A stretch of 64,000 bases of DNA from Candidatus Bathyarchaeia archaeon (GCA_035529595.1 DATKWK010000035.1:317904-381903); one strand, 5' to 3'; counted from the first letter of the stretch, positions 3,276-56,368 are shown. Translations and numbers: made by a program. The notes: generated from the letters alone by a model not told the origin.

Positions 3276-4356
3276 CTCCCCCTTCGGGATAACTGTAAAC
3301 CAAAACCCGGTCGGGACTGATTTTTAATCCCACATGCTCACCCTTTTCCAACGAAGCCCGATGCGAAGAAAGGGCGACCTTCACCCGCACTATTTCCCCT
3401 CCTTTCAGCTTAACCTCAAAAAATACCTGCCCTCCTAAAAAACTGACCGAATCAATTAAACCGGACAATCCACCTTGGTTAGGTTCTTCTTTAAATAGGT
3501 TTATCTCTTCCGGTCTGAAGGCAATCACGACTCGGCTCCCGCTTTTAAACTGATTATCTCGTGTTTCAAAACGTTGGTTATGAGACAAAACCAAACTGCT
3601 GCCTTTTTTTGACCTGTCGGCAATCTTTGCTTCCAGAAAATTTGATTGACCGATAAAATTGGCCACAAAAATAGTGCCGGGGAATTGATATAGTTCCCGC
3701 GGCGTCCCGATTTGCTCTACTTCACCTTTTCTTAGAAGAACAATCCGATCGGAAAGAAACATCGCCTCATCTTGATCGTGAGTGACATGAATGGCAGTAA
3801 AGTGAAGCCTTTTGGCCAATTTCTTCAGTTCAACCTTAATCTCATTTTTAATCTGGGCATCCAAAGAACTTAACGGTTCATCCAAAAGAATCAGTTTGCT
3901 GCCTGATGCAAGAGCCCGAGCCAGTCCAACCCGCTGCTGCATTCCACTTGAAAGCTGGGAAGAATAGGCTTTTCTCCTGGCTGACAACTTAATCATTTTT
4001 AAAAGTTGATTACCTACTTCTTCAATTTTTGCCTTATCGAAACCGCGAATTCTTGGCCCATAAGTGATATTCTGCCAAACATCAAGATGGGGAAAAAGGG
4101 CGAAATTTTGAAAAACGAAACCAATATTCCGCTCTTCAGGCGGTAACCCGTTAACCGGCTGATTGTCGATAATAATTTGACCGTAATCGGAGGTTTCCAG
4201 ACCGGCAATAATCCGTAAAAGAGTTGTCTTACCACACCCTGAAGGCCCCAAGACTGTCACATACTCCTGGTCTTGAACATCAAAAGTAATATCTTTTAAG
4301 GCAACGATTTTGCCGGTGAAAGTTTTTTTAATATTTTTCAGATTAACCTGCGGCAT
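3250..4356 (-). CDS. ABC transporter ATP-binding protein with a C-terminal TOBE-like domain (importer ATPase of the Fe3+/thiamine/polyamine/sulfate type).
   Basis: Walker A GPSGCGKTT, ABC signature LSSGMQQRVGLARAL, Walker B LILLDEPLSSLD, H-loop VTHDQDEA. The C-terminal region of about 120 aa matches the pattern of a transport-associated OB fold. Confidence 0.85.
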   Translation of the reverse strand: MPQVNLKNIKKTFTGKIVALKDITFDVQDQEYVTVLGPSGCGKTTLLRIIAGLETSDYGQIIIDNQPVNGLPPEERNIGFVFQNFALFPHLDVWQNITYGPRIRGFDKAKIEEVGNQLLKMIKLSARRKAYSSQLSSGMQQRVGLARALASGSKLILLDEPLSSLDAQIKNEIKVELKKLAKRLHFTAIHVTHDQDEAMFLSDRIVLLRKGEVEQIGTPRELYQFPGTIFVANFIGQSNFLEAKIADRSKKGSSLVLSHNQRFETRDNQFKSGSRVVIAFRPEEINLFKEEPNQGGLSGLIDSVSFLGGQVFFEVKLKGGEIVRVKVALSSHRASLEKGEHVGLKISPDRVLVYSYPEGGVEAAIKSD

Positions 4357-4363
4357 AGCTTAA

Positions 4364-5935: not shown

Positions 5936-6063
5936 ACTCTCATCTTTACTTTAACCTCTTAAACCCAATAAACCACCCGCCCTGACGGGATTTAACAAAA
6001 TCCAATTCAGCCACCTTTAATAGTAATCTTCCTCGAAAAACCAAAAATCTATCTTAACGATTC

Positions 6064-6089
6064 AAAAAGGGGTGTTCACTTTAAACCCC
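6064..6089 (-). terminator. Putative intrinsic terminator downstream of the RRM-protein gene.
   Basis: Minus strand reads GGGGTttaaagtgaacACCCC followed by TTTTT, within 50 nt of the stop at 6137. Confidence 0.4.
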
Positions 6090-6136
6090 GGCTTGAACCT
6101 TGCATATATTTCAGATAGGACCAGCGGTAATTATTG

Positions 6137-6544
6137 CTACTCTGAATCAGAAGCTTGATCAGCAGATTCTGCCGCTACTTCTTCGGCTTCAGGTTCGACG
6201 GGTAGTTCTGATGATGGTGCTGGTTCCGGTTCAACGGTAACTTCAACAGCCGGCGCTGGGCTTTCTACTTGAGATTCTTGAGCAGACGGCTCGGTTTCTC
6301 TTGGCTGAGCTTCGGCTACCGACAATTTTCGACTCAGATCTTCCTGACCGTCAAACATTTCGATTGCCTTCTGAGCCTCCTCGACATTGCTCATTTCCAC
6401 AAAACCGAAACCCTTGGAACGACCAGTGCGCTTTCGTGTAATGACCGTTGCGCTGACAACAGTACCTGCTTTCGAAAATAAGTCCTTCAGCTGGTCGCTG
6501 GTCACACCATAATCAAGGTTACCAACATAAAGTCTGGGGTTCAA
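6137..6544 (-). CDS. RRM-type RNA-binding protein with an acidic, Pro/Glu-rich C-terminal tail.
   Basis: RNP-2 LYVGNL and RNP-1 KGFGFVEM motifs. The C-terminal 55 aa are Glu/Pro/Ala/Ser-rich low complexity. Confidence 0.8.
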   Translation of the reverse strand: MNPRLYVGNLDYGVTSDQLKDLFSKAGTVVSATVITRKRTGRSKGFGFVEMSNVEEAQKAIEMFDGQEDLSRKLSVAEAQPRETEPSAQESQVESPAPAVEVTVEPEPAPSSELPVEPEAEEVAAESADQASDSE

Positions 6545-6759
6545 ATTTTCTCACCTCCTTTTTTGAGTTTAATAAGCTTCTAAATAAAGCTTGCCGAAAT
6601 AAATCTAGAACTAGTTTATCAGGAAAGCGAATCAAAATAAATAGATAAATTTACCATGGTCCGATACTGCCCTTGACATGAGGACGGAAATATTATTAAA
6701 TGGTATTCAGAATTGCTTTGTGCCGGTCATTACGAAGCAAATACCGGCGAGAACGGAAA

Positions 6760-7266
6760 ATGAAGATTAAACTGCCTTTTTTTATTATTGTCTTTTTTTT
6801 GGCGACTTTTTACTTTACTTCTCAGGTACGAGCAGCAGATTTTAAATTAACCGCAATCGGTACTCTGGATGTTTCGGAAACACTTTACTCCCATATGTGG
6901 TACACCGGCAATCAACCGAATTTTTCTGGAACCGGGAACAAAGGTGCCGCTGTCAGCATTACCGTTGATGGCAACTCATATTCAACTACTGTCAATGATA
7001 ATGATCAATGGAGCTGGAAACCGCCGGCTCCCTTAGAAAATACGGATCATAGTCTCTCCTTTGTCTCGGAAGAAAAAACTGTCTTATTAACTCTAACTAC
7101 CGGGTCAACCGTACCGGAAAACGTTATCACTACGCCAAGCGCCAGTCCATCAGGTTTACCCCAAGCCGGACTTGTATGGCCTACGATACTCACTCTTGGC
7201 TCAGGCTGTATTTTAATTCTTTATCCGCTTCTGAAAAAACTTGCTTATAAACTAGGTAGCGATTAA
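6760..7266 (+). CDS. Secreted or cell-surface protein with a signal peptide and a C-terminal LPxxG-like sorting signal. The ORF track starts at 6700; the ATG at 6760 is preferred here.
   Basis: MKIKLPFFIIVFFLATFYFTSQVRA is a classic signal peptide. The C-terminus reads LPQAG, then a hydrophobic stretch (LVWPTILTLGSGCILILYPLL), then a basic tail KKLAYK. That is the sortase-substrate architecture. Confidence 0.5.
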   Translation: MKIKLPFFIIVFFLATFYFTSQVRAADFKLTAIGTLDVSETLYSHMWYTGNQPNFSGTGNKGAAVSITVDGNSYSTTVNDNDQWSWKPPAPLENTDHSLSFVSEEKTVLLTLTTGSTVPENVITTPSASPSGLPQAGLVWPTILTLGSGCILILYPLLKKLAYKLGSD

Positions 7267-26883: not shown

Positions 26884-28254
26884 TTAATAGTGAACTATCT
26901 GTCTTAATAATCGTTTGTGAAACTCGGTGATACGCTCATCGATCAAAATATCATTACGCCATATTCTTTTGGTCAAAATTATCCCCTCTAAACTCCGGCA
27001 CCGGCTCAGGGCGACATAAGTTTGGCCATGGGCAAAGGGCGACCGGCTGAAATCAACACAAACTTTATCCAGAGACATGCCCTGGCTTTTATGAACGGTA
27101 ATCGCCCAGGCTAGCCGGAGCGGATATTGTTTCAGTTTGCCGATGACTTTTTCCACGAGCCCTCCGGTTTCCTGATTATATTCGTATTCGATGTTGTCCC
27201 ACTCGTTGATATCGACCGCCACAATTTTTTTGGTTTCATTAATTTTGACCTCGATTAAATCCTCAGCCAACTCGTCAACCTTACCCAATGTCCCGTTTAC
27301 CCACCGTCTACCCGGATCGTTTTTGACAAATAAAACTCTCGCCCCTTTCTTAAGCTTTAATTCCAAATCAACCGGCAAATTCCGGTTCTCGGTCGGAAAG
27401 TCGCCCTCGATCGCCGCCTGGTAAACAAACAACGGCTTTTTTATCTTGTCGAGTTTTCTTTGATTAATTGCCTCGGCGGTTTTATTGACCGTGCATAAAA
27501 CAATATGGCTCCCGGGCGGTTGTTTGGCCGTTACTCTTTGATTAATTAAACTGAAAGTATCAGCAGAGACGTCACCCGATCTAACCTGGTTAAGGAATTC
27601 AATAAAATGAAGTTCCTTTTGCCGGAAAATTGTTTTTAGCTCAATCACATTAAAATCGTCCAGTTCAAAAGAATTGGCGCTGAAAAAATAGGGAGAATCA
27701 TAAAGCTGGCTATAGGTCGAGATATCCTGATAGGTAATCACCGGCGGCAGCTGGTATAAATCGCCGACGATAACTACTTGAATACCCCCAAACGGCAATC
27801 TTTCGTCCCGGCCATTAAGTCTTAAAAAACGGTCAACACCGTCAAACAGATCCGCCCTGACCATGGAGATCTCATCAATCACCAGGCAGTCCAAATCGGC
27901 AAAGATTCGCTTTCCGGTCCTCCTGATGGCTTTCGGTTCAATTAACCGGGGAGGAAAACCGAAAAATGAGTGGATTGTTTGCCCGCGGATATTTAAAGCG
28001 GCAATTCCGGTTGGTGCCAGGACGACCACTTTCTTTTTGGTCTGGTTACGGAAGTATTGGATCAGCATCGACTTGCCGGTCCCGGCTTTACCAATGATAA
28101 AGAGATTTTGGTTGGTATTCTCCAAGATCTCCAAGCACTTTTTATGTTCCTCCGTTAAGACATAGGCATTGTCTCTTTTAAACTTATTCAGAATCTTTTT
28201 AAAGATTTTGGGTTGGCTCATGTTTGTGTTTTCTTCATGTTTTAAAGTATACAC
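26884..28254 (-). CDS. PIF1/RecD-family SF1 DNA helicase. The start may instead be the internal ATG at 28221-28223.
   Basis: Walker A IIGKAGTGKSMLI, Walker B LVIDEISMV, and helicase motifs through the C-terminus (VHKSQGMSLD). The 28254 start is a GTG that overlaps a repeat element. Confidence 0.85.
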   Translation of the reverse strand: MYTLKHEENTNMSQPKIFKKILNKFKRDNAYVLTEEHKKCLEILENTNQNLFIIGKAGTGKSMLIQYFRNQTKKKVVVLAPTGIAALNIRGQTIHSFFGFPPRLIEPKAIRRTGKRIFADLDCLVIDEISMVRADLFDGVDRFLRLNGRDERLPFGGIQVVIVGDLYQLPPVITYQDISTYSQLYDSPYFFSANSFELDDFNVIELKTIFRQKELHFIEFLNQVRSGDVSADTFSLINQRVTAKQPPGSHIVLCTVNKTAEAINQRKLDKIKKPLFVYQAAIEGDFPTENRNLPVDLELKLKKGARVLFVKNDPGRRWVNGTLGKVDELAEDLIEVKINETKKIVAVDINEWDNIEYEYNQETGGLVEKVIGKLKQYPLRLAWAITVHKSQGMSLDKVCVDFSRSPFAHGQTYVALSRCRSLEGIILTKRIWRNDILIDERITEFHKRLLRQIVHY

Positions 28255-30174: not shown

Positions 30175-30852
30175 TTAAAAGAGGATATCTTCCTGAGCAC
30201 CCCTTGGCTTTTGAGTACAAATCCGGTAATAACACCATTTGCAACTATCAGGATTTTCAGGCGGGGGAGGGCCGTTTAATAACTTTGAAACTTCGGAAAT
30301 GAAGGCATAAAACCGATCCATATCTTCGGCAATTTCAAACCACTGGGGTTTGGCTTTAAAAATCACGTCTTCAGCCGGAAATGAAATTTCTTCGGGATTA
30401 ATCGCAATGATTCCCATTTTACTGACCTTTTTGGGTTCTCCAAAATCAGGATTTTCTAATGCGAACTTGTAGGCGTGAAGTTGGGCAAAGAATCTCTGAA
30501 TCTTGTCTTCCGTCGGGTCAGTAATTTTAAAATCAATTACGGAATAAGTTCCGTCTTCAAGGCGGGAAATAAAATCAAACCTGCCGCCGATATAACAATC
30601 ATTGGCCGGCGGAATGGGTTTTGATTTTAGGAAACCTTCTTTTACCTCGACCTTTCCGGCCGGAAGAAGCGAATTAATTTCTCTTAAATCCATGCCGATA
30701 ATTGCATTTTGCAAAAGTGAATTCATTTTTGTAAAAACACCGGGCATGCCGATTGAAGGCAATTCTTTAATTAAGCCTTTTGCTTTCTGGTAATAGCAAT
30801 GCTTGCAATCCTCGTATAAATACTTGAAATCCGAAGGAGATAATTTGTACAT
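30175..30852 (-). CDS. Cas4/RecB-like PD-(D/E)xK nuclease-family protein with 4 Cys (putative Fe-S); orphan.
   Basis: N-terminal C-x2-C... (DCKHCYY). Central D...VIDFKITD (D/ExK). C-terminal CKWCYYRIC. This is the Cas4/DUF83 arrangement of Cys around a PD-(D/E)xK core. No CRISPR array or cas1/cas2 nearby. Confidence 0.55.
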   Translation of the reverse strand: MYKLSPSDFKYLYEDCKHCYYQKAKGLIKELPSIGMPGVFTKMNSLLQNAIIGMDLREINSLLPAGKVEVKEGFLKSKPIPPANDCYIGGRFDFISRLEDGTYSVIDFKITDPTEDKIQRFFAQLHAYKFALENPDFGEPKKVSKMGIIAINPEEISFPAEDVIFKAKPQWFEIAEDMDRFYAFISEVSKLLNGPPPPENPDSCKWCYYRICTQKPRGAQEDILF

Positions 30853-34347: not shown

Positions 34348-35973
34348 ATGAAAGGTATGTTGCAAACCCAACCCCATAAAGACATTGATCCGGTTGATCA
34401 TACTCTTTATGCTCTAAATGAATTAGATACCGAAGCTTTATCAAGAGAGGACCGGCTGATAGCCAGAACAGTCTTGATATTTCATGATATTGGGAAAGTT
34501 CACGATGCTTTCAGTCGGGAGCACCCAAGAAGATCAGTTGATATTAGCAGAGACTACTTAGTAAAAACGGGTTATTCTGCCAATCAAGTTAAACGGGTTA
34601 TTCATCATATTTGCTGGCATGACGCGCTTGGTGATGTTGCCAGAATTGATGGAAGAAATATATTTGATGAAAGGGACGTGCTTACCTTTTTTCCAGACGA
34701 AACCGAACTGCGCCTTCATCGGGAGATTGTTATCGCTGACGTTGCCTCGATACCGGATCTGGCAAGATATGTTTCCAATATTCAAATAACCTATCAACGA
34801 CTACTGGAAAAACTGGCTGACCATAGAGGTAAAAAAGCCATTGAACCCGAAAAAGAGCTTCCTTTTGAAACAATCGGCGTTTATCAGTACCATCAAATAT
34901 ATAAAAGCTTAGACCGAACTACGGAATTTGATGATGTCGATATCGTCACCGAGATGGCCTCAAGAAGAGCTGATTTCGAAGCCTTATCAGCCAAGGATCA
35001 GGAAATCGTTGAAAAAACTATTATCCAAGGAATTACCAGCGGCTCCCCCCGAGCCCTGAACGCACTTAAACTGACAGGAAGAGAGACCGATACTACTTTT
35101 ATTGATCAACTAGAAGAAAAATATGACCTAGATTTAGAACCACTCCGAGCCTTAACCTATTTATTTGGCTTCACCTATTTATTATGGGAGTTAAATTGGA
35201 ATGTTCAGGATCGCTATTTACCGAATACCCCAGGATTAATGACCCAAATCAGAGGCAAATTAATCAGGGTACGCACTCTTGCTCAAAAACTTGGTCAATA
35301 CGAACTAGTCGCTACCCATGCAACCACCGAAGAAGGAAAAGTGATGATTGATCAAAGCATGGCCTTATTAAAATCGACCGATTTTAGTTCCCACTATGAA
35401 GGCGAAGGGGTTTACACCGGAATTTTTGGCTGTTTCAGAACCTGGGCCACCGGCGGTTGTTACGAAATGGTCATTGCCTTAGCAGATACACTGCCAATTA
35501 TTTCGAATTATAGAAATCCTGGAGCGATGACTAATAATCTGTGCGAAATGTTGGATATCGAATACGACGGTAGAGCGATCGCCCATGGCCTGGTTCAATG
35601 GTATAAAATGGACTCCGATTATGATGAGATTCCAGAATGGAAAGTTGCTTTACTTGAAAACTTACTAGGATCTCCGGCCGAAATCATAACCGATGAATAC
35701 GATCGTCCTTGCATAACTATGGATACTCAAGAAAATCCGATCATTTGGGCAAGTCTCTGCCGTGGTCTAAGAATAAGACGTTTTATCCCCAAAAAATTCC
35801 TCCACCTTGCCGAGTTTGCTACCAGACAAAAAAGGGATAAATTACCCCAACCAGAAAGACCGGCAACCGAAAGATTAGCAATTAAATATCCCTATGAAGA
35901 AAAGCCAATTCCTATCTTGAGGATTCACGGACTTAGTCCAATGGAACTGGAACGAATGATGGCCGAGGCTTAA
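34348..35973 (+). CDS. HD-domain (metal-dependent phosphohydrolase) protein, 541 aa.
   Basis: N-terminal H...HD motif (VDHTLYAL ... IFHDIGKVHD). The remainder is unassigned. The same frame is open upstream to 34060, apart from a single TAG at 34135-34137. Confidence 0.65.
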   Translation: MKGMLQTQPHKDIDPVDHTLYALNELDTEALSREDRLIARTVLIFHDIGKVHDAFSREHPRRSVDISRDYLVKTGYSANQVKRVIHHICWHDALGDVARIDGRNIFDERDVLTFFPDETELRLHREIVIADVASIPDLARYVSNIQITYQRLLEKLADHRGKKAIEPEKELPFETIGVYQYHQIYKSLDRTTEFDDVDIVTEMASRRADFEALSAKDQEIVEKTIIQGITSGSPRALNALKLTGRETDTTFIDQLEEKYDLDLEPLRALTYLFGFTYLLWELNWNVQDRYLPNTPGLMTQIRGKLIRVRTLAQKLGQYELVATHATTEEGKVMIDQSMALLKSTDFSSHYEGEGVYTGIFGCFRTWATGGCYEMVIALADTLPIISNYRNPGAMTNNLCEMLDIEYDGRAIAHGLVQWYKMDSDYDEIPEWKVALLENLLGSPAEIITDEYDRPCITMDTQENPIIWASLCRGLRIRRFIPKKFLHLAEFATRQKRDKLPQPERPATERLAIKYPYEEKPIPILRIHGLSPMELERMMAEA

Positions 35974-38389: not shown

Positions 38390-38663
38390 TACACCTTCAA
38401 AATGTCTCAGATTAGACACTTCTTTTATAAGTATACACCAAAATTCTCGGCCGAAAGCTTGATATTTTCACAAATTTTGCATCCTTGTCATCCTAATCCC
38501 GACTTTAGGTCGTGGAGAAGGATCCAGCGAAGCCAAGTCTGACTTGGCGAAGCGCTTACGCTAGATTCCTTGGAATGACAATAGAGTCTTGAAATAGGTT
38601 CTGATTTTTTTAAATCAGTAGAAAAAGTACCAAGGTGTCAAGGGAAAGACACCTTGAAGGTGT
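38390..38663. repeat. A-pal family element carrying a nested B-pal palindrome.
   Basis: Left ACACCTTCAAAATGTCTCAGATTAGACACTTCTTTTATAAGTATACACCAAAATTCTCGGCCGAAAGCTTGA. Right ...AAAAAGTACCAAGGTGTCAAGGGAAAGACACCTTGAAGGTGTT. Interior 38484-38580 is the second B-pal palindrome. Confidence 0.6.
38484..38580. repeat. Imperfect palindromic element, family B-pal, copy 2 (TTGTCATCC...GGAATGACAA), nested in an A-pal element.
   Basis: Terminal arms ttgtcatcc / ggaatgacaa are exact reverse complements. The interior gaaggatccagcgaagccaagtc-tgac-ttggcgaagcgcttacgctagattcc is palindromic. Its right arm matches copy 1 (14677-14768) in reverse orientation. Confidence 0.6.
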
Positions 38664-42315: not shown

Positions 42316-42403
42316 TTAAATCAAAAACAGTGAAAAGGCAAAAAGGGCAATTGGAGAAAAAAAATTCACCGAGGTTCAATGGGAAAAGTACCTTGAAGGT
42401 GGT
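42316..42403. repeat. A-pal family right-end element (TTTAAATCAA..GAAAAGGCAA..TTCACCGAGGTTCAATGGGAAAAGTACCTTGAAGGTGG).
   Basis: About 75% identical over about 80 nt to 28290-28369. Directly abuts the stop of the 42413 gene. Confidence 0.55.
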
Positions 42404-42412
42404 TACCTTTAT

Positions 42413-45259
42413 TCATAGGTTGTATTTGTCTTTTCTTTTTTCAAATGCCGCCTCACCGCCATCAAGAATGTCGCAAGCGTGTTCTCTAATTCCACAAGAC
42501 AGCAAAACAATTTCTTGAGTTTTATCCCTTTCTTTCGTGTACTCTAATGAGCCACTTAGATAATCAAACTTCTGGTTATCTTTATTTTTTCGGTCGTCGC
42601 CGTGCTGATTAGCAACCATGACTTGCTCCGAGTCAGCACCAACGACTAAATTTGCATTATGGCTAACCATAATAATTTGTCGCCTTTTCTTTTGCTCTTT
42701 CAAATAGGGAACAATCGAAAAATACATTGACCGGCTATCAAGGTCGTCCTCTGGCTGGTCAATCAAAAGAGGCCATGTGTCCGATTCTTTGGTTAACAGA
42801 AGGGTAAGCGCAAATAATGCCTGCTTTCCTTCTGTCATCGAACTACTACTGAAACCACCAATTGTGTCGTTTTCCATAGTTGAGTTGAACCGAATATCTT
42901 CAACGAAGGTTAAAACTTCCTTAGCGCAAAGTTGCGAATCTTCATCAAACAACACCTTTTGTTTTTTGGCAAACACGGCATCAAGAAAATTGTGAGGGTC
43001 ACTTCTTATTAAGTCGATTTTTAATAAATCTTTCTCTCTGTCAATAAAATCACTGCTCTCTTTTCTATTAAAGCGTGCGGATAGCTCTTCAAATTTTTGG
43101 GGATGGAATTGAATTTCAACCCCGAAACGGATTTTGCTATCTGACTGCTCAAGTGCAGCAAATTTCGTCTTTAGGGTATCTAGGGCTGAAGTTCTGTCGC
43201 TAACACTTTTTTTAATTAGTTCAGACAAATCTCTTAACTCGGTGTTTTTATCGGCGATTTCCTGTGTCAACTTTTCTATTGCCGATTTTCTTTCCTTCTG
43301 CTTGTCTAACTTCTCGATCAAATCCTGCAATTGCTCGTTTTTCTTACACTTTTCGATTAAATCCTTATTTGAATCGTATAGGGTTTTAATTTCAGACTGA
43401 ACTCGTGACTTCTCCTTATCCAAATCAGATTTATAGGCAAGAATTCTTTTTTGTACCAGCCCGCTAACGGTACTTGACCATTGAGTAACATCTTGGGTAA
43501 TCTTCTTCTGTAAATTTAACGGCAACGACTCGATTGCGGGCATAAAAGAAACTTTCGTAGTAATAGAGATAACCTTATCTTTCCTGTCGCTATCGTCTCG
43601 GTAAATAAATCCTTCAAGTTCGCCAAGCTCTTCATCAATCTTTTTTAATCTTGCTTCCTTGTTATGGATATCCTGACTTAGTTCCTTGTATTTTTTGACG
43701 TCTTCGTCGCTAAGGGAAGCAATTTTCTTAAGCTCATCGATCTTTTTTTCAAAATCCGCAATAACCTTTTCAATAGCTGTTTTGTCACCTTGCTCTTTAA
43801 TCTCTAGTTCTAGAGATCTAACTTCCTCTTTCGTGACAAACCACTTTGTAACTGATTCGGTAATGCTTTTGTTGTAAGTGTCTCTAATATCAATCTGGAG
43901 TCGCTCATAAACTTGTTTAATTTCCGGATAATTCTCAAACAACACAGGTTTAATCATGGCTGTAATATCATCCGGACGACTGCTTAATTCAGCCAGATAA
44001 TTTTGTGGAATATAAACAACTTTTCCGTGTTGCGTTAGTCCGTTACCCCACTCAACGGCAACCTCAAAGTTCACATCTTCCCAACTAACTTTTGCCGCGG
44101 GACCTTCGGGCTTGATCCCCTTTGCGCTTTCAGGGTCAACTGAACAAGCGAGATAGGCCAAAAGCGCTGATTTACCAGACGATCTACTTCCAATAATTGA
44201 GCTAAGGTTATCGTTAAACAGAATTTCATTCGGAAAATCAGAAGTGTTTTTAAAAATTATTTTACGAATAACACGGTCGGGCAACTTTCCACCCGGAGGA
44301 ATCGAGCCCATAAATACTCTTTCGCCGCTAATTGGCTCATAGACAATTTGTTTTAAGCCTTCATAAGTCAAATCGGCCTTTATCCAAGTAATCTCTTTCT
44401 CTACCTCACCTTTAGCATTTACAACTTTTTTGCCTAGGAAGTTGTCAACATCCTCGAAAGAATGCGCATCGCTACCAGACAATACCGGTTTTGGTGCTGT
44501 TTCTTCACCGTTATCTAGGCGTTCTTTATCCGAGAAGTGATCAACATTAGTTGAGCTTCCAAAAAACCCGTGACTAAACTTGTCTATCTCATCAGTAATT
44601 ACCGCCTTTCTCTGTTTGCCTCTAACTTTTCCAGCCACTTTTTCAGTATCCGTTCTAATGCCATCATTGTTTGCGGCGGCAATAATAAGCATATAATCAG
44701 TAAGATCAATCTTACTTCCAAAGGTTGCCTTAATTGCATCCTCTATGAACTGCCTTGTTGTTGTAGCTTTCTCAAAATCTTTGGTTGACGAAAGTTCAGA
44801 AGCCTTTATGTTTTTGCCTGAAAGGTTGTTGGTTTCATTTGTTTTGAGACTACTTAAAAACTCCCCAAGTCTGCTTTTGATATTCGGCATATCAGAATTA
44901 ACAATAAGGTGCAGATTTACTTCCTCCCCAGCTTTATTAACTACATCATTAGTACATACTTCAATATTTGGGAAAAACACTTTTGAGGAGTCGGGGTATT
45001 TATTTTTAAATTTATCTATAAAGGTAAAATAATTATCAACCGAAAAATAATCAGTGATACCAATTGCTACGACATCAGATTCCTCAATCTTCTTACAAAA
45101 TATATCCCAGGGATCACCGTCCTTTAATTTATATTGGTCATTCTTTTTGGTTCCAGGTGTATGAACTTGCAAATCCCATTTTCTCCATAGAGAACCCCGC
45201 GGATCGTTGATTCGTGTGTCTCGATCGTTCTGGTTATTGTTGCCACTACGTTTAGTCAT
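42413..45259 (-). CDS. PHP-domain phosphoesterase fused to an SMC/OLD-like ABC ATPase with a long coiled-coil insert; Ppl-like candidate antiviral defence protein.
   Basis: N-terminal PHP motifs WDLQVHTPGT (DLHVHT-like), GITDYFS, NIEVCTN, NLHLIV. Walker A GSRSSGKSALLAYLA at about aa 370. About 250 aa of E/K-rich coiled coil. C-terminal signature-like SMTEGKQALFAL, Walker B LLIDQPEDDLD, H-loop MVSHNANLV. This architecture (PHP plus ABC ATPase) matches the single-gene 'Ppl' defence system described among recently catalogued anti-phage genes. Confidence 0.65.
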   Translation of the reverse strand: MTKRSGNNNQNDRDTRINDPRGSLWRKWDLQVHTPGTKKNDQYKLKDGDPWDIFCKKIEESDVVAIGITDYFSVDNYFTFIDKFKNKYPDSSKVFFPNIEVCTNDVVNKAGEEVNLHLIVNSDMPNIKSRLGEFLSSLKTNETNNLSGKNIKASELSSTKDFEKATTTRQFIEDAIKATFGSKIDLTDYMLIIAAANNDGIRTDTEKVAGKVRGKQRKAVITDEIDKFSHGFFGSSTNVDHFSDKERLDNGEETAPKPVLSGSDAHSFEDVDNFLGKKVVNAKGEVEKEITWIKADLTYEGLKQIVYEPISGERVFMGSIPPGGKLPDRVIRKIIFKNTSDFPNEILFNDNLSSIIGSRSSGKSALLAYLACSVDPESAKGIKPEGPAAKVSWEDVNFEVAVEWGNGLTQHGKVVYIPQNYLAELSSRPDDITAMIKPVLFENYPEIKQVYERLQIDIRDTYNKSITESVTKWFVTKEEVRSLELEIKEQGDKTAIEKVIADFEKKIDELKKIASLSDEDVKKYKELSQDIHNKEARLKKIDEELGELEGFIYRDDSDRKDKVISITTKVSFMPAIESLPLNLQKKITQDVTQWSSTVSGLVQKRILAYKSDLDKEKSRVQSEIKTLYDSNKDLIEKCKKNEQLQDLIEKLDKQKERKSAIEKLTQEIADKNTELRDLSELIKKSVSDRTSALDTLKTKFAALEQSDSKIRFGVEIQFHPQKFEELSARFNRKESSDFIDREKDLLKIDLIRSDPHNFLDAVFAKKQKVLFDEDSQLCAKEVLTFVEDIRFNSTMENDTIGGFSSSSMTEGKQALFALTLLLTKESDTWPLLIDQPEDDLDSRSMYFSIVPYLKEQKKRRQIIMVSHNANLVVGADSEQVMVANQHGDDRKNKDNQKFDYLSGSLEYTKERDKTQEIVLLSCGIREHACDILDGGEAAFEKRKDKYNL

Positions 45260-45355: not shown

Positions 45356-47209
45356 TTATATTTCCGGTAAATGACTTTTAAGATATTTTTCTGTATCTTT
45401 ATCAATAAAATAAACATATACTCCCTTATGGGCCCGAGAAAGAAGTACGCGATAAACGTTTTTTAAGTGATTCGTGAGATTTGGATTATTACGTTTTACT
45501 TGCGTATCATGAGAATTTTCCGGAATCGCTCGCCACTTACTTTCAACCGGATCAAAAACCAAATCATTTCCAAAAATAACTGCAATATAGTCAAATTCAA
45601 ACCCTTGAGCTGTATAAACAGTTCCCACCTGTTCCATCCCCGAATCATCGGTAGCCCATTTCCAAAACTGGTCTTTTTTTTCCCATGGCATTTCGAAGTT
45701 TCCTATTTTTACGTCGTTAACTAAAGAATTATCTGGGATTGGTTTACTCCACGACCAACAAAATCCTGCAGTAATCCTCGCGGAATTAGGTTTCTCATGA
45801 TTTCTCTTCCGAATTTCTTCCATCATCTCTTGCGGGCTTTTAAAAATTTTAAATTCCATTTTAGGATCATATTCCGAAAATTCACTATCACCAATTCTTA
45901 AAACAAAATCTAACCATTGAAGGTAAGCATCGGAACCTGAACATCTAAATTGTGTTTTAAGCTCAAATTCAGAGATATCAGATTTTTTAATTCCCAAACG
46001 TTGCACTGCTTTTTTTATCATCTCGACGCTTCCTATTTCGTTCGGTCTCACGATCTGATTTTCGTCAATAAAGAAAATGCTTAATTTCGCTACATTTAAC
46101 AATTCGTCTATTTGGGGCAAATCTGTTCTTTGAACTTTCGGTGTATATCTATCTATGCTTGATTCTCTTATACGATGTGCCTCGTCGCAAATAAGCACAT
46201 CAAAAGAACCTGACTTCGTTGCAATAAAGCTGTTGAAAAATTTGAACAGGTTTTTTGCCCGAACACCAACTATATTTCTTAATGTATTTGTAAACGCGGA
46301 CGATCCCGTGGCATGTACGACCTTTCTCCCTTGCCTCAAAAGCTCCCCCATAACTTCTAATGCTATTACAGACTTCCCTGTGCCGGGACCACCCTTTACT
46401 ATCACTACTGATTTTTGCTTTGTTTTTGCGAACTGCTTAACTTTGTGCCTTATTGCATTGTAGGCAACAATTTGTTCATCAATTAAATTAAAAATTTGCC
46501 GTTTATTTATCATCTCCGATGTATGATCAAGTAGTTTTCTAGACGGTTCGATTGGGCTTCTTGCAAATCGTTCGTAAATCAATTTACCCTTACCACCCTG
46601 AAGGCGCTTTTTTAGATATCTTCCCAATTCAATAGCGTCTTCTTTTGCAAACAATGGAAAGGTTTTGATTAATTTAGAAAATTCCGAAGAAAAAAGTATG
46701 GCATCTTTATTCTTTGAATAATTATGTAGATATACAGATGCGCTTAATTCTGGCGAGTTCTTTTCTTGAAAAATCCTAAGAAAATCCTTTAGGCCGAAAT
46801 AGTATCCTTGCACTTGTAGCACGGGGTGTGGTTGTTCCCTCTTAAATTGCCCATAATCGACGACTACATTACCTTCACTTTCGGCGTCTTGCACGTGTTG
46901 ATTTGACCATTGTTTGAGTTCCATCATTACAACATTTTCTTCTCCATCCACGTCATGCCCAAAAAGCAAAACATCAATTCTTCGCGACGAAAAAGGAAGT
47001 TCGTATTCGACAATTATATGGTTGTCTTTAAGGCCGGCGTAATGAAAACTATTATTTAGGATTGCAAGCGAAATTGCCCATGATCTATATTCACGATCAG
47101 CTGGATCCTTTTTGTAGTAAGCTCGATATTTTTCGGCCGCACGATCCGCAATGCAGTTTTGCATTACATCTTCGTTAAATCGCTCGATTGTGCCTTCATA
47201 AAGAATCAT
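45356..47209 (-). CDS. DUF2075-like protein: N-terminal PD-(D/E)xK-type nuclease fused to an SF1/RecD-like P-loop helicase-like ATPase.
   Basis: N-terminal IDVLLFGHD...VVMMELKQW (D...ExK). Walker A VIVKGGPGTGKSVIALEVM. Walker B VLICDEAHRI. C-terminal TVYTAQGFEFDYIAVIFGNDLVFD, characteristic of DUF2075/UvrD_C_2-type domains. Confidence 0.7.
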   Translation of the reverse strand: MILYEGTIERFNEDVMQNCIADRAAEKYRAYYKKDPADREYRSWAISLAILNNSFHYAGLKDNHIIVEYELPFSSRRIDVLLFGHDVDGEENVVMMELKQWSNQHVQDAESEGNVVVDYGQFKREQPHPVLQVQGYYFGLKDFLRIFQEKNSPELSASVYLHNYSKNKDAILFSSEFSKLIKTFPLFAKEDAIELGRYLKKRLQGGKGKLIYERFARSPIEPSRKLLDHTSEMINKRQIFNLIDEQIVAYNAIRHKVKQFAKTKQKSVVIVKGGPGTGKSVIALEVMGELLRQGRKVVHATGSSAFTNTLRNIVGVRAKNLFKFFNSFIATKSGSFDVLICDEAHRIRESSIDRYTPKVQRTDLPQIDELLNVAKLSIFFIDENQIVRPNEIGSVEMIKKAVQRLGIKKSDISEFELKTQFRCSGSDAYLQWLDFVLRIGDSEFSEYDPKMEFKIFKSPQEMMEEIRKRNHEKPNSARITAGFCWSWSKPIPDNSLVNDVKIGNFEMPWEKKDQFWKWATDDSGMEQVGTVYTAQGFEFDYIAVIFGNDLVFDPVESKWRAIPENSHDTQVKRNNPNLTNHLKNVYRVLLSRAHKGVYVYFIDKDTEKYLKSHLPEI

Positions 47210-47323
47210 AATTGAAGTTTATTGTTTTAGTATGATTACCTTTTTGCTTTACCTAATGATTATAAATTTATTTCCGATCTCACTCACCTCTAAATTTAAT
47301 AATTTCTTTAATCAGACATGAAC

Positions 47324-48016
47324 TTATATTAAGTTTTGTTCCTTTAAACTGTAAAATTTGTTTTTAGTAACGATAATGTGATCGAGAAGTTCAATACCAA
47401 AAATTTTAGCTGCTTCTTCCAAGCGTCTCGTTAGCGCAACGTCTTCCGGTGAGGCTTCAGGATTTTCCGATGGATGGTTATGGGCAATTATTATTTGTGC
47501 AGCAAAGGACTGAATCGCTTCTTTAAAAACTTCCCGGGGGTGTACAATACTTGAATTAAGCGAACCTACTGAAATATTACTGATTTTTATTAAACAATTA
47601 TGTGCATCAAGAGACAGCACAACAAAATGCTCTTTCTTTTCCCGTCCGATAGATTTTTGCAAAAAGTTAGCTACTGCCCTTGATGAATTAAGTGTAATTT
47701 TCTCTGGTAGGTGCTCTCTTGCGAGGCGCTCAGCTACTGCCTGAAAAAGTTTTATACCAAATGCATTAGATGGTCCAATACCTTTAATCTTTTGTAAATC
47801 TTCCAGCGAAGCATCAAGTACTCCTCGTAAACCACTAAGCTCTTTAATAGCTTGTTTTGCCATTTGCTTACAATCTTTCCGAGGGGTACCCAACGTTAAA
47901 AGTAATTCCACAATTTCATAATCAAGAAAACCGTCAAATCCACTTTTCAAGAAACGTATTCTTAATCTTTTCCTGTGGCCTTCCATTTTTTGTGGATCCT
48001 TAAGGGAAATTGTCAT
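47324..48016 (-). CDS. radC: RadC-like JAB/MPN-domain protein.
   Basis: N-terminal HhH region (IKGIGPSNAF). JAMM motif IIIAHNHPSENPEASPEDVALTRRL. Confidence 0.85.
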   Translation of the reverse strand: MTISLKDPQKMEGHRKRLRIRFLKSGFDGFLDYEIVELLLTLGTPRKDCKQMAKQAIKELSGLRGVLDASLEDLQKIKGIGPSNAFGIKLFQAVAERLAREHLPEKITLNSSRAVANFLQKSIGREKKEHFVVLSLDAHNCLIKISNISVGSLNSSIVHPREVFKEAIQSFAAQIIIAHNHPSENPEASPEDVALTRRLEEAAKIFGIELLDHIIVTKNKFYSLKEQNLI

Positions 48017-48022
48017 TATTAC

Positions 48023-48370
48023 CTACAATTTGTCGTATTTAGCATGACGTCCCTTCGCTTTCTCGATAGGATATTTTTCTTCGTTTTTGTCCATCTTTTT
48101 GCTTAAAGCATCGACAATATCTATCTCCAAATCATGGCTCATCAATAATATCCAATAAAGAACATCGGCCAACTCTTCTCCGATATGTTCCTTGTGAGCT
48201 GAAATGTATTCCTCCAATTCTTTTCCGTTTTTCCATTGAAAATGCTCAACAACCTCTGAGGCTTCCAATGTAAGGGAAAGGGCTACATCTTTTGGGTTAT
48301 GAAATTGTTTCCAATCACGAGCGTCTCGGAAGGCAATTATTCGTTTTATTAATTTGTCAAGATTTTTCAT
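48023..48370 (-). CDS. MazG-like nucleoside triphosphate pyrophosphohydrolase (small all-alpha NTP-PPase).
   Basis: 115 aa. EASEVVEHF...EELADVLYWILLMS is the MazG/HisE EExxD/E metal-binding helix pair. Confidence 0.7.
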   Translation of the reverse strand: MKNLDKLIKRIIAFRDARDWKQFHNPKDVALSLTLEASEVVEHFQWKNGKELEEYISAHKEHIGEELADVLYWILLMSHDLEIDIVDALSKKMDKNEEKYPIEKAKGRHAKYDKL

Positions 48371-48443
48371 AATACTTTGTCAGAAAATCAACATCAATCC
48401 TAAAAGCCTTGACGATCCCTGCCTATTGGCAGAAGAAGGGGAT

Positions 48444-48484
48444 AGTTTAAATTTGGCCACTTTAAGCTGATTCTACCACTTTTT
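48444..48484. repeat. 41-bp direct repeat, copy 1 (AGTTTAAATTTGGCCACTTTAAGCTGATTCTACCACTTT).
   Basis: About 38/41 identical to 49441-49479. The two copies bracket the PIG-L gene. Confidence 0.6.
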
Positions 48485-48554
48485 ACCTAGCAGGTCATAC
48501 TGGTTGGCTAATATGACAGATCATCATACGATAACCACTCCGGCAATTGTTATT

Positions 48555-49282: not shown

Positions 49283-49440
49283 CTTAGGTTTCCTGACGTT
49301 TTTTAAAGTTTTAAACTAGGACTAACAATTTTTAGAATATCTTTCTTTTAATTTTCATAAGCAAAAAGATTTTTGGTAAAAATCACAAGAACCAGGGAAA
49401 GCAGGAAAACCAAGCCGGTTTTTTTGACAGAAAGAGAGAG

Positions 49441-49479
49441 AGTTTTAATTTGGCCACTTTAAGCTGATTTTACCACTTT
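49441..49479. repeat. 41-bp direct repeat, copy 2 (AGTTTTAATTTGGCCACTTTAAGCTGATTTTACCACTTT).
   Basis: See copy 1 at 48444-48484. Confidence 0.6.
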
Positions 49480-52290: not shown

Positions 52291-52416
52291 ATTTCTAAAA
52301 TATACTAAATTAACTTCAATTGTAATATTAAACTGACTTTTCCAGTGCCGTTTTATTTCTTACCTAGCCTTCGATACTAAATATACCTCAAACCAATCTG
52401 AAGGAAACTCTGATTA

Positions 52417-52452
52417 CCAAGGTGTCAAGGGTGAGACACCTTAAAGGTGTAT
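52417..52452. repeat. A-pal family right-end hairpin (CCAAGGTGTCAAGGGTGAGACACCTTAAAGGTGTAT).
   Basis: Near-identical in form to 38627-38663 (CCAAGGTGTCAAGGGAAAGACACCTTGAAGGTGTT). Confidence 0.55.
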
Positions 52453-52454
52453 TT

Positions 52455-53288
52455 TTAACCAACCCTAAAGCTTTCTAGAAAGTAGTACCACTGAGCAGTT
52501 TCTTGAACATAGGCATCAATCTGCCGCCAATCGGGGCCGATTCCTTTACCTTGGCTTTGATCAACTATCATTCCCATTTGGCTAAATCTTCTTGGATCAG
52601 GAGCAAAAACAGCCTGGCTGATCCCCAATTCATTTTGGTTCCAAGGTTGGGCCGGTAAAATTTTTATCATTAAACAATCAGCAACAAAATCTCTCATCGT
52701 TGACGGCCGGTCATCAATAAAAACCTGCAGATTAAATCGAGTTATCATGCCGAGTTTAAAATCTAAGTCGGTTACCCCCGGAGAGCGAATAATCAGTCTG
52801 TTTTCGTCGACTACCCAATCCAGGCCGAGATTCTTAAACCAGTCTTGAGTTGCCTGGCCAATTCCATATTGGTCGACTCTACCGCTGATAAAGAAAACTT
52901 CATATCCCTGATTTCGCCAGTCGCAAATTACTTCCAGAGCACCCGGGTAAACGACCGCGTTTTGAAAAACATCAGTTCTCTCATAGTAAAGCTGCTTGAG
53001 AAATTCTTTGGCTCCCGGAGTATCGGCAACTAAAGGATGTTTGGCCAGATCCCAATCAAGAGTATCCTCAACCCGAAGATGAACCTCCTCTCCCCTTATT
53101 TGGCTTAGATATTGACTCATAACTGCAAGTGCGTAAGGATGACTATCGGCAAATGTCCCATCCAGGTCAACACCGATTCCTAACCTTCTGATATCCCACT
53201 CCGGAGTCGACCGGCCAGTTCTTTCTATAGCCATAAAAATGAAGTGGTATATCTTCCACTTTTTCCCACTGTAAGACGATTTTACCAC
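52455..53288 (-). CDS. HAD-like 5'(3')-deoxyribonucleotidase-family protein (putative nucleotidase).
   Basis: IGVDLDGTFADSHPY resembles the NT5C-family motif I (DMDGVLAD). 277 aa. Weak overall. Confidence 0.5.
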   Translation of the reverse strand: MVKSSYSGKKWKIYHFIFMAIERTGRSTPEWDIRRLGIGVDLDGTFADSHPYALAVMSQYLSQIRGEEVHLRVEDTLDWDLAKHPLVADTPGAKEFLKQLYYERTDVFQNAVVYPGALEVICDWRNQGYEVFFISGRVDQYGIGQATQDWFKNLGLDWVVDENRLIIRSPGVTDLDFKLGMITRFNLQVFIDDRPSTMRDFVADCLMIKILPAQPWNQNELGISQAVFAPDPRRFSQMGMIVDQSQGKGIGPDWRQIDAYVQETAQWYYFLESFRVG

Positions 53289-54108
53289 TTCCTGTAAAAA
53301 GTACCTCTTGAAGCTATTGAGTAACTCCGCATCATTCTCTGTAAAGGTTTTTGAAACGATAATGAGACTCTTCTTCTATTTCTCTTGCCCGAGAAGAAAA
53401 ACTCTCCCCTCTTTTTTCAAGTAAACCATCTACTTCCTGCTGCGTATATAGCTTTTCCGGCCAAACAGTCACGTTCCCCTTTTGATCATTTAATTTAATA
53501 TCCATATTTATTTTCACCCCTTTTAATTCTCTGAACGAAACCGAAAACTTTATATCATTCGACTAATAAAGAGCGCAAGCAGCGCGCTACCACAAATTAA
53601 GAAGCTTGTTGTTCACGAGAAAGGACTTGCACCAGTTTAACAATTCTCCAAGCCAAAAAAGCGTACACAATAATTGCTACCGTCATTATTATTTCATCCC
53701 CTTTTGTTTTTTTAAATTATCACAGATTTTTTCTTTATTCTCTGCGTTTGTTAATTTGATAACGTGAGTTTAAGGATCAAGCCACTTTAATATCAGGCTT
53801 CTTAATTATTGTTTCTTTGGGTAAATACTTCATTAAAGCCCTTTCTACTAGAAAGGTTAAGCTGCGTCCCTCAACCACAGCTTGTGCTCTGGCGTGTCTT
53901 AATAGGTCCGGATTAAGAAAAAGAGTTACCCGTTGTTTATTGTTATTTATTGTCATAGTTCACATGGTACCACTAGTTAAAGTTATTATCAAGTATCAGT
54001 TTGGAGCTAGCCCACGAGGTCTATAAAAAGATTAATTGGAAAACCGAGTCCATATTTATCGAAACCCAAGAGTTGGATTGTAAAGAATGGGGGAGAAATC
54101 AAGCTTTC

Positions 54109-54642: not shown

Positions 54643-55521
54643 TCAGTCTACCAGTCCTTCAGATTTAAAAATTTCAGGATATACTTGATAAAGCTTGGCA
54701 ATCAGCTCATCAAAATCGCGACAACTCATTATCATCCTGACTACCTGCCGGTTACTCCGGTTCCTGGTTATGTCTTTAACAAATTGGCACATGGAGCTTA
54801 CTAGCTCATCGATCGGATACTCCGTTTTCTTGCCGGTGGCTAAAATTTTCATCAATGAAGGAGAAAAACGGCTGACATCCCGAAAAACCTGTCTCCAAAA
54901 TCCGGGTATCGAATCAACCGTCAATAAATCACCTTCAGGATCAGTCACTTCTCCGATGACTGCGATTAATTCATTCAAAGCCGGGGCATCAGATGTTTTC
55001 CTCTCATATATCAGTGGGTCTGTAGCATGGATTTTTTCATGCCTTTTTATCTGCCTGGGCTCTAAATGACCTCTAATATACTCTGCACAAACGAAAACAA
55101 TTGAAAGCGGCCTCATATCCTCTTCGACATCTAATGCCAGCGTCGTACCTTGAACCAAAGACAGATCAGTCCGACGCAAAAAAGATTGATAATGTCTCTG
55201 CCGGCGAAATTCAAAGACCGGAACTAAAAGACCGCCGTCAGTAATCTGTGAGACCGGCTCGAGGGCAAATTTAGCACCTGCCAGTGATCTTCCAGGAAGA
55301 GCGTATTGTTCACAGAACCGGCTTCTCAACCAACCTTCAAAATTTGGCCGCTGGCTTTCCTGCATCATAAATTCATACCAGCGGCTTGCTCTTGGACTCA
55401 TTTTAACTATTTCTGCGTACGGCGGGGCAATTTCCTGGGGAATTGGTTGCTCGGTTTTCTCTATATCCTCTGCTGCCCCAAAGATTATTCTAGGCCCTAA
55501 CATCTTTATCTCCTTTATCAA
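54643..55521 (-). CDS. Hypothetical protein.
   Basis: 292-aa ORF. Overlaps the upstream NTPase gene by 32 nt (probably co-transcribed). Confidence 0.45.
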   Translation of the reverse strand: MIKEIKMLGPRIIFGAAEDIEKTEQPIPQEIAPPYAEIVKMSPRASRWYEFMMQESQRPNFEGWLRSRFCEQYALPGRSLAGAKFALEPVSQITDGGLLVPVFEFRRQRHYQSFLRRTDLSLVQGTTLALDVEEDMRPLSIVFVCAEYIRGHLEPRQIKRHEKIHATDPLIYERKTSDAPALNELIAVIGEVTDPEGDLLTVDSIPGFWRQVFRDVSRFSPSLMKILATGKKTEYPIDELVSSMCQFVKDITRNRSNRQVVRMIMSCRDFDELIAKLYQVYPEIFKSEGLVD

Positions 55522-56368
55522 TTAAATCTAAAATCACCGACTGGATATGGGAACATTCTCCGACTTTCCCGGCATAATCTTTTCTGCCTTTAAACAGATC
55601 GCAATCACAGTAGAAATTATTATTAACCAAACTTAGTCTGACCAAGTGACTGTCATGCTTTCCAATCACCCGATAGATTTCTTCGTTGGCAGTCTCTTTT
55701 TCAAGAGCGATTTTTTTGTTGATCACATAAAAAAGAGCGTTATTAAACAGCTTCCTGATTTGGATAAATTGGTTTTGAGAAAAATATTGCCTGGTAAGTT
55801 GTAAAAACTTATCTCTCTGAGATAAAGATAATCGGTTTATTTGACTGATACTACGATAAATAAGAAGCAGCAGTTCAGGTAATATTTCCCTATTAGTCTC
55901 GTCAACCTCAATCAAAACCGCCCCAGGGTGTTTTTTAAATTCAATTGACCAAGGCTCGGGATCAAAAACAATCGTTGCCAAGATATTACATTCACTATTA
56001 AGAGTTTCACGAATCGCTTGCATAAATAATTTTGAGAACGACTGCATCCGGCCAATTTCATCAATCAAAATCACTGAATCCGGATCCTGAATGCCTCGTT
56101 TAATTTCCGGAACAACAAAATCATCAATCGCCTTAATGTCAACATGATATTTTCCACCGACTATAAATTCGGATTTAATTTTGTATTTATGGGCAAAGAC
56201 TTTTTCTTTTTTGGCCGAGTTTTCCGCTGAAAAACCAACCCGGTTGTTATCCTCATCCCTTAATTCCCTGGCAACTATTCCATAGATTTTTCCGGTAAAA
56301 CCGCCCCTGAATTTTTGAAGGATAGTGCTTTTGCCGATACCCGGCCGGCCGGTAAGTAAAATTTTCAT
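55490..56368 (-). CDS. THEP1/COG1618-like P-loop NTPase fused to a C-terminal SWIM-type zinc finger.
   Basis: MKILLTGRPGIGKSTIL (Walker A at the extreme N-terminus, as in THEP1 NTPases). Walker B ILIDEIG. C-terminal CDCDLFKGRKDYAGKVGECSHIQS (CxCxnCxH). Confidence 0.65.
   Translation of the reverse strand: MKILLTGRPGIGKSTILQKFRGGFTGKIYGIVARELRDEDNNRVGFSAENSAKKEKVFAHKYKIKSEFIVGGKYHVDIKAIDDFVVPEIKRGIQDPDSVILIDEIGRMQSFSKLFMQAIRETLNSECNILATIVFDPEPWSIEFKKHPGAVLIEVDETNREILPELLLLIYRSISQINRLSLSQRDKFLQLTRQYFSQNQFIQIRKLFNNALFYVINKKIALEKETANEEIYRVIGKHDSHLVRLSLVNNNFYCDCDLFKGRKDYAGKVGECSHIQSVILDLIDKGDKDVRA

Follow-up and report, generated by a model that had tools for sequence, protein, structure and literature searches.

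A mobile operon of predicted MazG-like pyrophosphatase, RadC and nuclease-helicase genes as a candidate defence module

Do three adjacent genes encoding a nuclease-helicase, a RadC protein and a MazG-like nucleotide pyrophosphatase belong together, and what might they do? The question is raised by positions 45,356-48,370 of a 64,000-nucleotide (nt) stretch of DNA, hereafter the window, deposited as Candidatus Bathyarchaeia archaeon (GCA_035529595.1 DATKWK010000035.1:317904-381903), where an earlier annotation made from the sequence alone (the original prediction) had proposed a multi-gene defence module. The three open reading frames (ORFs) that it described are all present on the minus strand. 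The MazG-like gene (48023-48370; 115 amino acids (aa), ORF with Pfam PF12643 match) comes first in the operon, and is followed by the RadC gene (47324-48016; 230-aa ORF, identified with Pfam and NCBIfam) and by the gene for a 617-aa DUF2075 protein, the nuclease-helicase (45356-47209). The MazG-RadC gap is 6 nt long (36 nt with the public gene call of RadC, which has 220 aa and begins at M11, position 47986) and the RadC-DUF2075 gap 114 nt. Comparison with related loci indicates that this is a horizontally mobile three-gene operon; we somewhat favour a function in defence against phages or other invading DNA, as the gene content and its relatives suggest.

Conservation and mobility of the gene set

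We gathered related loci by identical-protein matches (5 loci) and from one genome per GTDB species (79 loci), giving 83 non-redundant loci, and compared their neighbourhoods by tblastn with the window proteins and by clustering all ORFs in the loci. The counts given here are those of tblastn; ORF clustering undercounts MazG where an over-extended DUF2075 ORF masks the gene. A MazG-like gene adjoins the DUF2075 gene in 59 of the 83 non-redundant loci, in bacteria as well as in archaea. With ORF calls the pair was recovered in ~54 loci, both genes sharing one strand each time; spacings of -4 to +5 nt are frequent, and translational coupling is common. In a clade of Candidate Phyla Radiation (CPR) bacteria, defined by at least 67% identity to the window DUF2075 protein, a MazG-like gene and RadC are both adjacent in 15 of 15 loci. 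A MazG-like neighbour also occurs in 9 of 14 loci of a mid-identity clade (52-66%), which includes DPANN archaea, Omnitrophica, Planctomycetia and Aminicenantes, and in 35 of 54 loci from Bacillota, Bacteroidota and others (31-36%, with end-to-end alignment), where no RadC was found. RadC is adjacent in the CPR clade only. The co-localisation thus goes beyond chance for the MazG-like/DUF2075 pair and, within CPR, for RadC. The co-occurrence of all three families, which the original prediction had put forward as a check, holds for the two-gene core and is confined to the CPR clade where RadC is concerned. Taken together, these patterns indicate that the three genes are a real operonic unit with the MazG-like and nuclease-helicase pair as its conserved core. 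RadC is a CPR-specific addition and not part of that core.

Within the CPR clade, the pairwise identities of RadC and DUF2075 proteins correlate (r=0.85, 14 loci), which implies that both were inherited together, and the three proteins have mean pairwise identities of 67-72%. The gene order is mostly RadC-MazG-DUF2075, so that MazG-like and DUF2075 genes are directly adjacent in most CPR loci, whereas in the window, as in loci L005 and L013 of our collection, the order is MazG-RadC-DUF2075 and RadC separates the other two. It might be argued that three unrelated housekeeping genes came to lie side by side by chance, each family being common and each occurring alone in many genomes. Same-strand pairing in 59 of 83 loci, with genes that overlap or lie 2-3 nt apart, a RadC neighbour with correlated divergence in 15 of 15 CPR loci and otherwise unrelated flanks leave such an accident next to no probability.

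The flanks of the module differ in nearly every locus, and any other neighbour cluster recurs in at most 9 of 85 loci. The CPR proteins are 59-66% identical to those from archaea and Acidobacteriota (~60% for DPANN archaea). The DUF2075 family is present in 112 plasmid records, and serine recombinases and transposase fragments lie near its loci. Variable flanks, cross-domain identity of ~60% and the association with plasmids and recombinases argue for a mobile module and not for a housekeeping one. Synteny irrespective of the neighbouring cassettes had been named in advance as a sign of housekeeping genes; synteny is indeed independent of the neighbours, but the housekeeping inference fails for the reasons just given.

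Mobility of this kind could also mean that the gene set serves the mobile element itself. It might do so in counter-defence, with MazG hydrolysing signalling or alarmone nucleotides and RadC acting as it does in conjugative leading regions, or in the replication, recombination or addiction of the element. The plasmid records, the adjacent serine recombinases and a few phage or virus-like contigs, including that of Microcystis phage Mwe-JY31, in which MazG lies directly 5' of the DUF2075-family gene, would be compatible with this explanation. However, most plasmid carriers are non-mobilizable, and the window ORFs scanned against Pfam and NCBIfam (a subset of the ORFs) included no gene for an integrase, a relaxase or a phage structural protein. 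A phage-borne origin was checked in INPHARED and IMG/VR and set aside, the family being rare there (4 of 50,697 phage records in the former and 7 loci in the latter). Since defence genes are typical cargo of mobile elements, the mobile context does not discriminate between a service to the element and the defence of the host, and we consider the former improbable.

Domains and conserved residues of the three proteins

The C-terminal part of the 617-aa protein (aa 263-617; 45356-46423, minus strand, stop codon included) is a superfamily 1 (SF1) helicase/ATPase domain, which matched Pfam PF09848 SLFN-g3_helicase (formerly DUF2075) over aa 266-603 (E 5.7e-84). By contrast with this, the first ~260 residues matched no Pfam or NCBIfam family, and a PDB sequence search with the 617-aa query returned nothing at E<=0.01. 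They comprise a PD-(D/E)xK nuclease domain (~aa 1-170; 46700-47209, minus strand) and a helical linker (~aa 171-262; 46424-46699, minus strand) delimited by AlphaFold2 secondary structure and conservation, itself without family match. Aligning 28 full-length homologues that are 32-80% identical to the window protein revealed many invariant N-terminal residues (E68, P72, D79, G84, E97-L-K99-Q-W101, H128, P129, Q132, Y136, H162 and N163), as well as an invariant Walker A motif (GGPGTGK, G273-K279) and Walker B motif (DEAH 342-345, with D342, E343 and H345). E68, D79 and E97-x-K99 are predicted catalytic candidates of the nuclease domain, accompanied by a Q132-x3-Y136 motif. The linker has its own invariant positions (P185, P222 and L226), and S223 is found in 28 of 28 homologues and in ~90% of a set of 71. 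The assignment of the N-terminal domain as a PD-(D/E)xK nuclease is supported by its fold and by the invariant E...D...ExK. The motifs quoted in the original prediction were located at aa 78-86 (IDVLLFGHD), 96-101 (MELKQW) and 536-545 (GFEFDYIAVI), and the nuclease motif, whose absence from homologues would have spoken against it, is conserved across the 28 sequences.

The 115-aa protein matched Pfam PF12643 (E 1.6e-15; 57.5 bits against a gathering cut-off of 27). Its PDB matches were to the archaeal pyrophosphatase 4qgp (5.9e-21) and to dCTP pyrophosphatase 1 (DCTPP1, also RS21-C6) from mouse and human (1.6e-17). At least 95% of 57 partners keep the metal-binding residues E36, E39, E42, E66 and D69. 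We predict that it is a DCTPP1/RS21-C6-type all-alpha nucleoside-triphosphate pyrophosphohydrolase. DCTPP1, a eukaryotic enzyme with a house-cleaning role, has a preference for dCTP and 5-modified dCTP; the window protein is homologous to such enzymes and keeps their acidic residues, and differs in being encoded in an operon with a nuclease-helicase.

RadC is full length, with a Pfam RadC JAB domain (E 8.8e-44) preceded by the UPF0758/HhH N-terminal region (UPF0758_N, 1.4e-09). It scored 221.6 bits against the NCBIfam equivalog NF000642 (cut-off 180) and matched PDB 2qlc (6.4e-24). Its JAMM motif, H179-x-H181-x7-S189-x2-D192 together with E162, is conserved in 16 sequences. It therefore shares with canonical RadC (NF000642; 2qlc) the full-length architecture, an intact JAMM motif and a score above the equivalog cut-off, but it lies in a mobile operon and is co-inherited with a nuclease-helicase, whereas canonical RadC occupies a conserved chromosomal position. 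A nuclease-like or nucleic-acid-processing role has been predicted for RadC, JAB domains being positionally equivalent to nucleases (PMC5512222). The domain calls of the original prediction (PD-(D/E)xK plus DUF2075 helicase, RadC, MazG-like) hold for all three proteins.

Relation to known systems and proposed function

The closest functional guides are two defence proteins with the same architecture. Nhi of Staphylococcus epidermidis (SERP2475) has a PD-(D/E)xK N-terminus and SF1 motifs that overlap DUF2075, and its nuclease and helicase activities have been shown (10.1101/776245). It is a stand-alone gene with experimentally shown defence (Bari et al. 2022), whereas the window family is known by sequence. 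Nhi-like (SG141, from Bacillus cereus FSL H8-0482), unrelated in sequence to Nhi but of the same architecture, was validated by Millman et al. 2022 (10.1101/2022.05.11.491447). Like both, the window protein possesses an N-terminal nuclease with its catalytic residues and a DUF2075 helicase with Walker A and B motifs. Our family profile aligned with Nhi-like in hhalign (98.5%, E 3.6e-15, ~22% identity) collinearly over residues 4-397, with matching E..(R)xD..ExK motifs, and the window protein appears to be a remote homologue of Nhi-like in a different subfamily. In contrast to the window family, which usually comes with a MazG-like gene, Nhi-like was cloned and validated as one gene by itself. 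The PADLOC models for PDC-S41, Nhi and AbiO matched the 617-aa protein partially: the Nhi model aligned with the helicase half and not over its full length (positions 192-370 of 470, E 6e-15), and PDC-S41, likewise short of a full-length match, with two short stretches totalling 79 bits, the best at positions 550-622 of 657. A weak C-terminal match was obtained with GajB (6.8e-4). The resemblance to Gabija is an analogy in working only: there, too, a nuclease is coupled to nucleotide hydrolysis, and nucleotide levels gate cleavage of DNA (10.1101/2023.05.02.539174). Gabija is not homologous in architecture: its OLD-family TOPRIM nuclease (GajA) and UvrD-like helicase/NTPase (GajB) are two proteins, and MazG is absent.

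The two-gene core itself has been catalogued, as an unvalidated 'Pyrophosphatase' candidate comprising SG192 and SG193 in Table S2 of Millman et al. 2022 (10.1101/2022.05.11.491447). In these entries, as in the window, a MazG-like protein of ~100 aa is encoded next to a DUF2075 protein of ~620-640 aa with the same N-terminal domain, and the gene orders of both also occur among the loci collected here. The window DUF2075 protein aligned from residue 1 with that of SG192 (BLASTP, 33% identity over 408 columns, E 3e-62) and the MazG-like protein with its pyrophosphatase (47% identity, E 4e-32); having a DUF2075 gene and a MazG-like gene on the same strand, the window locus belongs with this pair. 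It differs from SG192 in that the window and all CPR loci have an additional full-length RadC, and the CPR proteins form a separate clade, ~33% identical. A literature search on MazG with DUF2075, Schlafen, Nhi or defence islands plus helicase and nuclease retrieved no relevant paper in the library searched. The core was already catalogued and tested once with a negative result, and what is new is the RadC-containing three-gene form.

The company that the module keeps elsewhere also bears on its function. Pfam and PADLOC scans of 145 genes immediately beside it in other loci detected Pfam families that included serine recombinases, ResIII helicases, HNH, GmrSD, TerB, AbiEii, Fic and SLFN_AlbA_2, and strong PADLOC matches to DrmD (E 0), Cas9 (3e-264), HmaA (6e-147), BrxHII, AbiEii, the Shango proteins SngA/SngC and several PDC candidates. 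Type I restriction-modification (RM) genes were also found among the flanking genes. On a Priestia plasmid, the pair has a restriction endonuclease on one side and a type I RM system on the other, and a gene with an MrcB_N domain overlaps MazG. The defence island of the original prediction consequently stands insofar as defence genes flank the module in other genomes and the nuclease-helicase has remote Nhi-like homology; the link to a Ppl-like gene and the repeat-bounded cassette, on which it also leaned, do not (see below).

In a defensive role, the ATP-driven nuclease-helicase would be the effector and, as shown for Nhi, would unwind foreign or replicating DNA and degrade it. The pyrophosphatase could deplete deoxynucleoside triphosphates (dNTPs), destroy modified dCTP-type nucleotides or gate the effector. 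RadC might be an accessory nucleic-acid-processing subunit, in a slot used by HEPN and HNH nucleases in Bacillota. A MazG-like protein has been predicted to be a nucleoside-triphosphate-targeting effector in rare variants of PUA-Calcineurin-CE-HAD, where it replaces a dNTP-depleting effector (10.64898/2026.01.15.699771), which gives a nucleotide-directed effector role of MazG in immunity a precedent. Several observations weigh against defence. The sole experimental test of a homologous pair gave none: SG192 (Bacillus firmus LK28; a 98-aa pyrophosphatase plus a 643-aa DUF2075 protein) is marked 'x' for defence, and SG193 (B. thuringiensis Lr3/2) is entered as 'cloning failed' (10.1101/2022.05.11.491447). 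The fit of the 617-aa protein to the PADLOC Nhi and PDC-S41 models is partial, and no PADLOC model matched the MazG-like and RadC proteins. An adjacent MazG is missing from about 30% of the family, all 5 Acidobacteriota loci among them, so this partner is not obligatory. By its score, RadC is the canonical chromosomal equivalog, and the MazG-like/DCTPP1 enzymes belong to the classical house-cleaning type. In the Pfam and NCBIfam scans, the rest of the window had no obvious defence-island character. Finally, the rarity of the family in viral collections does not prove a cellular defence role.

Some of these points would suit an accessory module for DNA repair and nucleotide-pool sanitation instead of immunity. 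In such a module, the MazG-like enzyme would clear non-canonical dNTPs, the nuclease-helicase would act on damaged or stalled replication intermediates as DNA2, AddAB or SLFN11 do, with RadC assisting, and the genes would have spread horizontally among CPR and DPANN organisms whose reduced genomes fall short of full repair pathways. The canonical equivalog match of RadC, the proximity of the MazG-like protein to house-cleaning DCTPP1, the strong conservation of the CPR proteins, the failure of SG192 to protect from phages and a MutT gene near the pair on the Priestia plasmid all speak for it. Nevertheless, its distribution is patchy without a conserved chromosomal position, its neighbours are mostly defence and mobile-element genes and not repair genes, Abi-type HEPN and HNH genes occur inside the operons of Bacilli, and the nuclease-helicase is homologous to the validated Nhi-like. 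We thus hold a repair function to be unlikely, and defence remains the reading that we prefer.

If functional in defence, this would be a widespread immune module, present in bacteria, archaea and plasmids, that couples a dNTP pyrophosphatase to an Nhi-type nuclease-helicase and so links manipulation of the nucleotide pool with DNA degradation in one operon. It would also be among the few candidate defence systems spreading among CPR bacteria and DPANN archaea, groups about whose immunity little is known. The published negative result for SG192 covered the two-gene version only.

The variable slot and the surroundings of the operon

The place of RadC between the other two genes in the window has a counterpart in Bacilli from the gut. 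Thirteen such loci carry a variable, non-homologous gene (71-284 aa) between MazG-like and DUF2075, with 2-10-nt spacing (among others L032:6291-6989, L045:6423-6989, L081:5370-5936, L068:6353-6997 and L040:4223-5005, given as locus and coordinates). Scanning ten of these genes identified two HEPN_AbiU2 proteins, one HEPN Hypoth_Ymh protein and one HNH protein. One membrane protein and several proteins without family were also seen in the slot. RadC in the window hence fills a slot that HEPN or HNH genes take in gut Bacilli, which fits the proposed positional equivalence of RadC JAB domains and nucleases (PMC5512222). One could conceive, tentatively and with low probability, of a modular three-gene immune system, MazG-X-nuclease/helicase, with an exchangeable X (RadC in CPR; HEPN, HNH or other proteins in Bacillota). 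Were this so, RadC would be a nuclease-like effector or a nucleic-acid-processing subunit, giving an enigmatic family a testable molecular role, and the failure of the two-gene SG192 could stem from the absence of its X component. The HEPN/HNH position offers an experimental handle on RadC, a common bacterial protein of disputed function.

Downstream of the operon, on the same strand and after a 96-nt gap, lies a 948-aa gene (42413-45259, minus strand) that the original prediction called Ppl-like. It belongs instead to the TrlF family of AAA-like ATPases (NCBIfam TrlF, 492.3 bits against a cut-off of 350). Its resemblance to Ppl, as to Spaf_1101, is C-terminal only: Ppl_antiphage scored 79.9 bits, far from a full-length match at the cut-off of 1000, and the PADLOC Ppl model covers only the C-terminal ~80 residues. 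A four-gene system including this TrlF/Ppl-like PHP-ATPase could be imagined, as no terminator-like site was found between the DUF2075 and TrlF genes, a hairpin follows TrlF, and the same arrangement is repeated in other samples of the same organism (recognised by exact DUF2075 protein matches). The TrlF gene is possibly co-transcribed with the operon here. Yet TrlF, like the PIG-L deacetylase upstream of the operon, was found in 0 of 84 other loci, which led us to reject both as members of the module and leaves the proposed Ppl-like link without counterpart. Other loci have an OLD-family ATPase, an HNH protein, PD-(D/E)xK proteins or a DndB-like protein at the position of TrlF, and such different genes at one position form a defence-island pattern and not a fixed system. 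A four-gene system is accordingly very improbable, and the TrlF gene is best seen as an incidental neighbour typical of defence islands, outside the conserved part of the preferred three-gene defence module. The name TrlF derives from the Photorhabdus temperature-restriction locus trlG-trlF-trlR; no trlG or trlR is evident beside the window gene.

Two short repeats contain possible transcription signals. Upstream of the MazG-like gene, a promoter-like element (48441-48498, minus strand) has its extended -10 within a 42-nt repeat; its minus-strand site at 48498-48470 contains the extended -10 TGGTAGAAT, with TG preceding TAGAAT. The 42-nt direct repeat (D1) is found at 48441-48482 and 49438-49479, with 93% identity between the two copies, 5' of the MazG-like and PIG-L genes, respectively. 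With its minus-strand TGnTAGAAT, it is probably a promoter or regulatory element common to both genes. A hairpin repeat (D2) of ~36 nt (ACACCTT...AAGGTGT) occurs at 38628-38663, 42367-42402 and 52415-52450, always at gene ends. The copy at 42367-42402 (no strand assigned), 3' of the TrlF gene, is likely a terminator or REP-like element and may mark the 3' end of a transcription unit. The repeat-bounded cassette of the original prediction dissolves into these elements: both the promoter-like 42-mer and the hairpin are also seen beside unrelated genes, and neither is the end of a mobile element. A weaker third copy of D1 was seen at 53250-53291. Scans of the window for tRNA and Rfam families gave no matches, so that there is no tRNA integration site in it.

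The source record is probably mislabelled or mis-binned, because the window genes are bacterial, with Lon, signal peptidase I, D-Ala-D-Ala ligase and the peptidoglycan amidase Amidase_3, and close relatives of the 617-aa protein carry the labels of CPR/Patescibacteria lineages. The window also contains other genes related to nucleic acids, namely a Pif1-like helicase (26884-28254, minus strand) and a PD-(D/E)xK protein of the PDDEXK_1 family (30175-30852, minus strand), in addition to a 541-aa HD-domain protein (34348-35973, plus strand) and an NTPase_1 protein (55490-56368, minus strand).

Some related loci have gene contents of their own. In six CPR loci, a ~232-aa protein overlaps or abuts the DUF2075 stop codon and may be a fourth operon member, absent from the window (examples are L006:8863-9558, L007:8857-9555, L010:8847-9545, L011:8883-9569 and L030:8857-9555); it had no Pfam match and a weak C-terminal HNH-like motif (IscB HNH region, E 0.013). 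Tandem DUF2075 paralogues were observed in some loci, including an Omnitrophica locus and a Hymenobacter plasmid (L019:1264-3672 and 3954-5930; L020:273-2675; L085:2904-4760 and 5001-6890), and the DUF2075 ORF is extended to ~800 aa in L019 and L020. The Acidobacteriota loci L015, L016, L018, L021 and L028 (62-66% identical), which have neither MazG-like gene nor RadC, are found in the vicinity of serine recombinases and of a protein of 650-1050 aa that recurs (cluster 14), and L028 is seemingly frameshifted. In L038 and related Bacillaceae, the DUF2075 gene is located near rlmH and yycH/yycI/yycJ, identified by eye from translated N-termini. The rlmH-yyc region is the integration site of SCCmec (staphylococcal cassette chromosome mec) in staphylococci, and the rlmH-side position in Bacillaceae hints at an SCC-like island.

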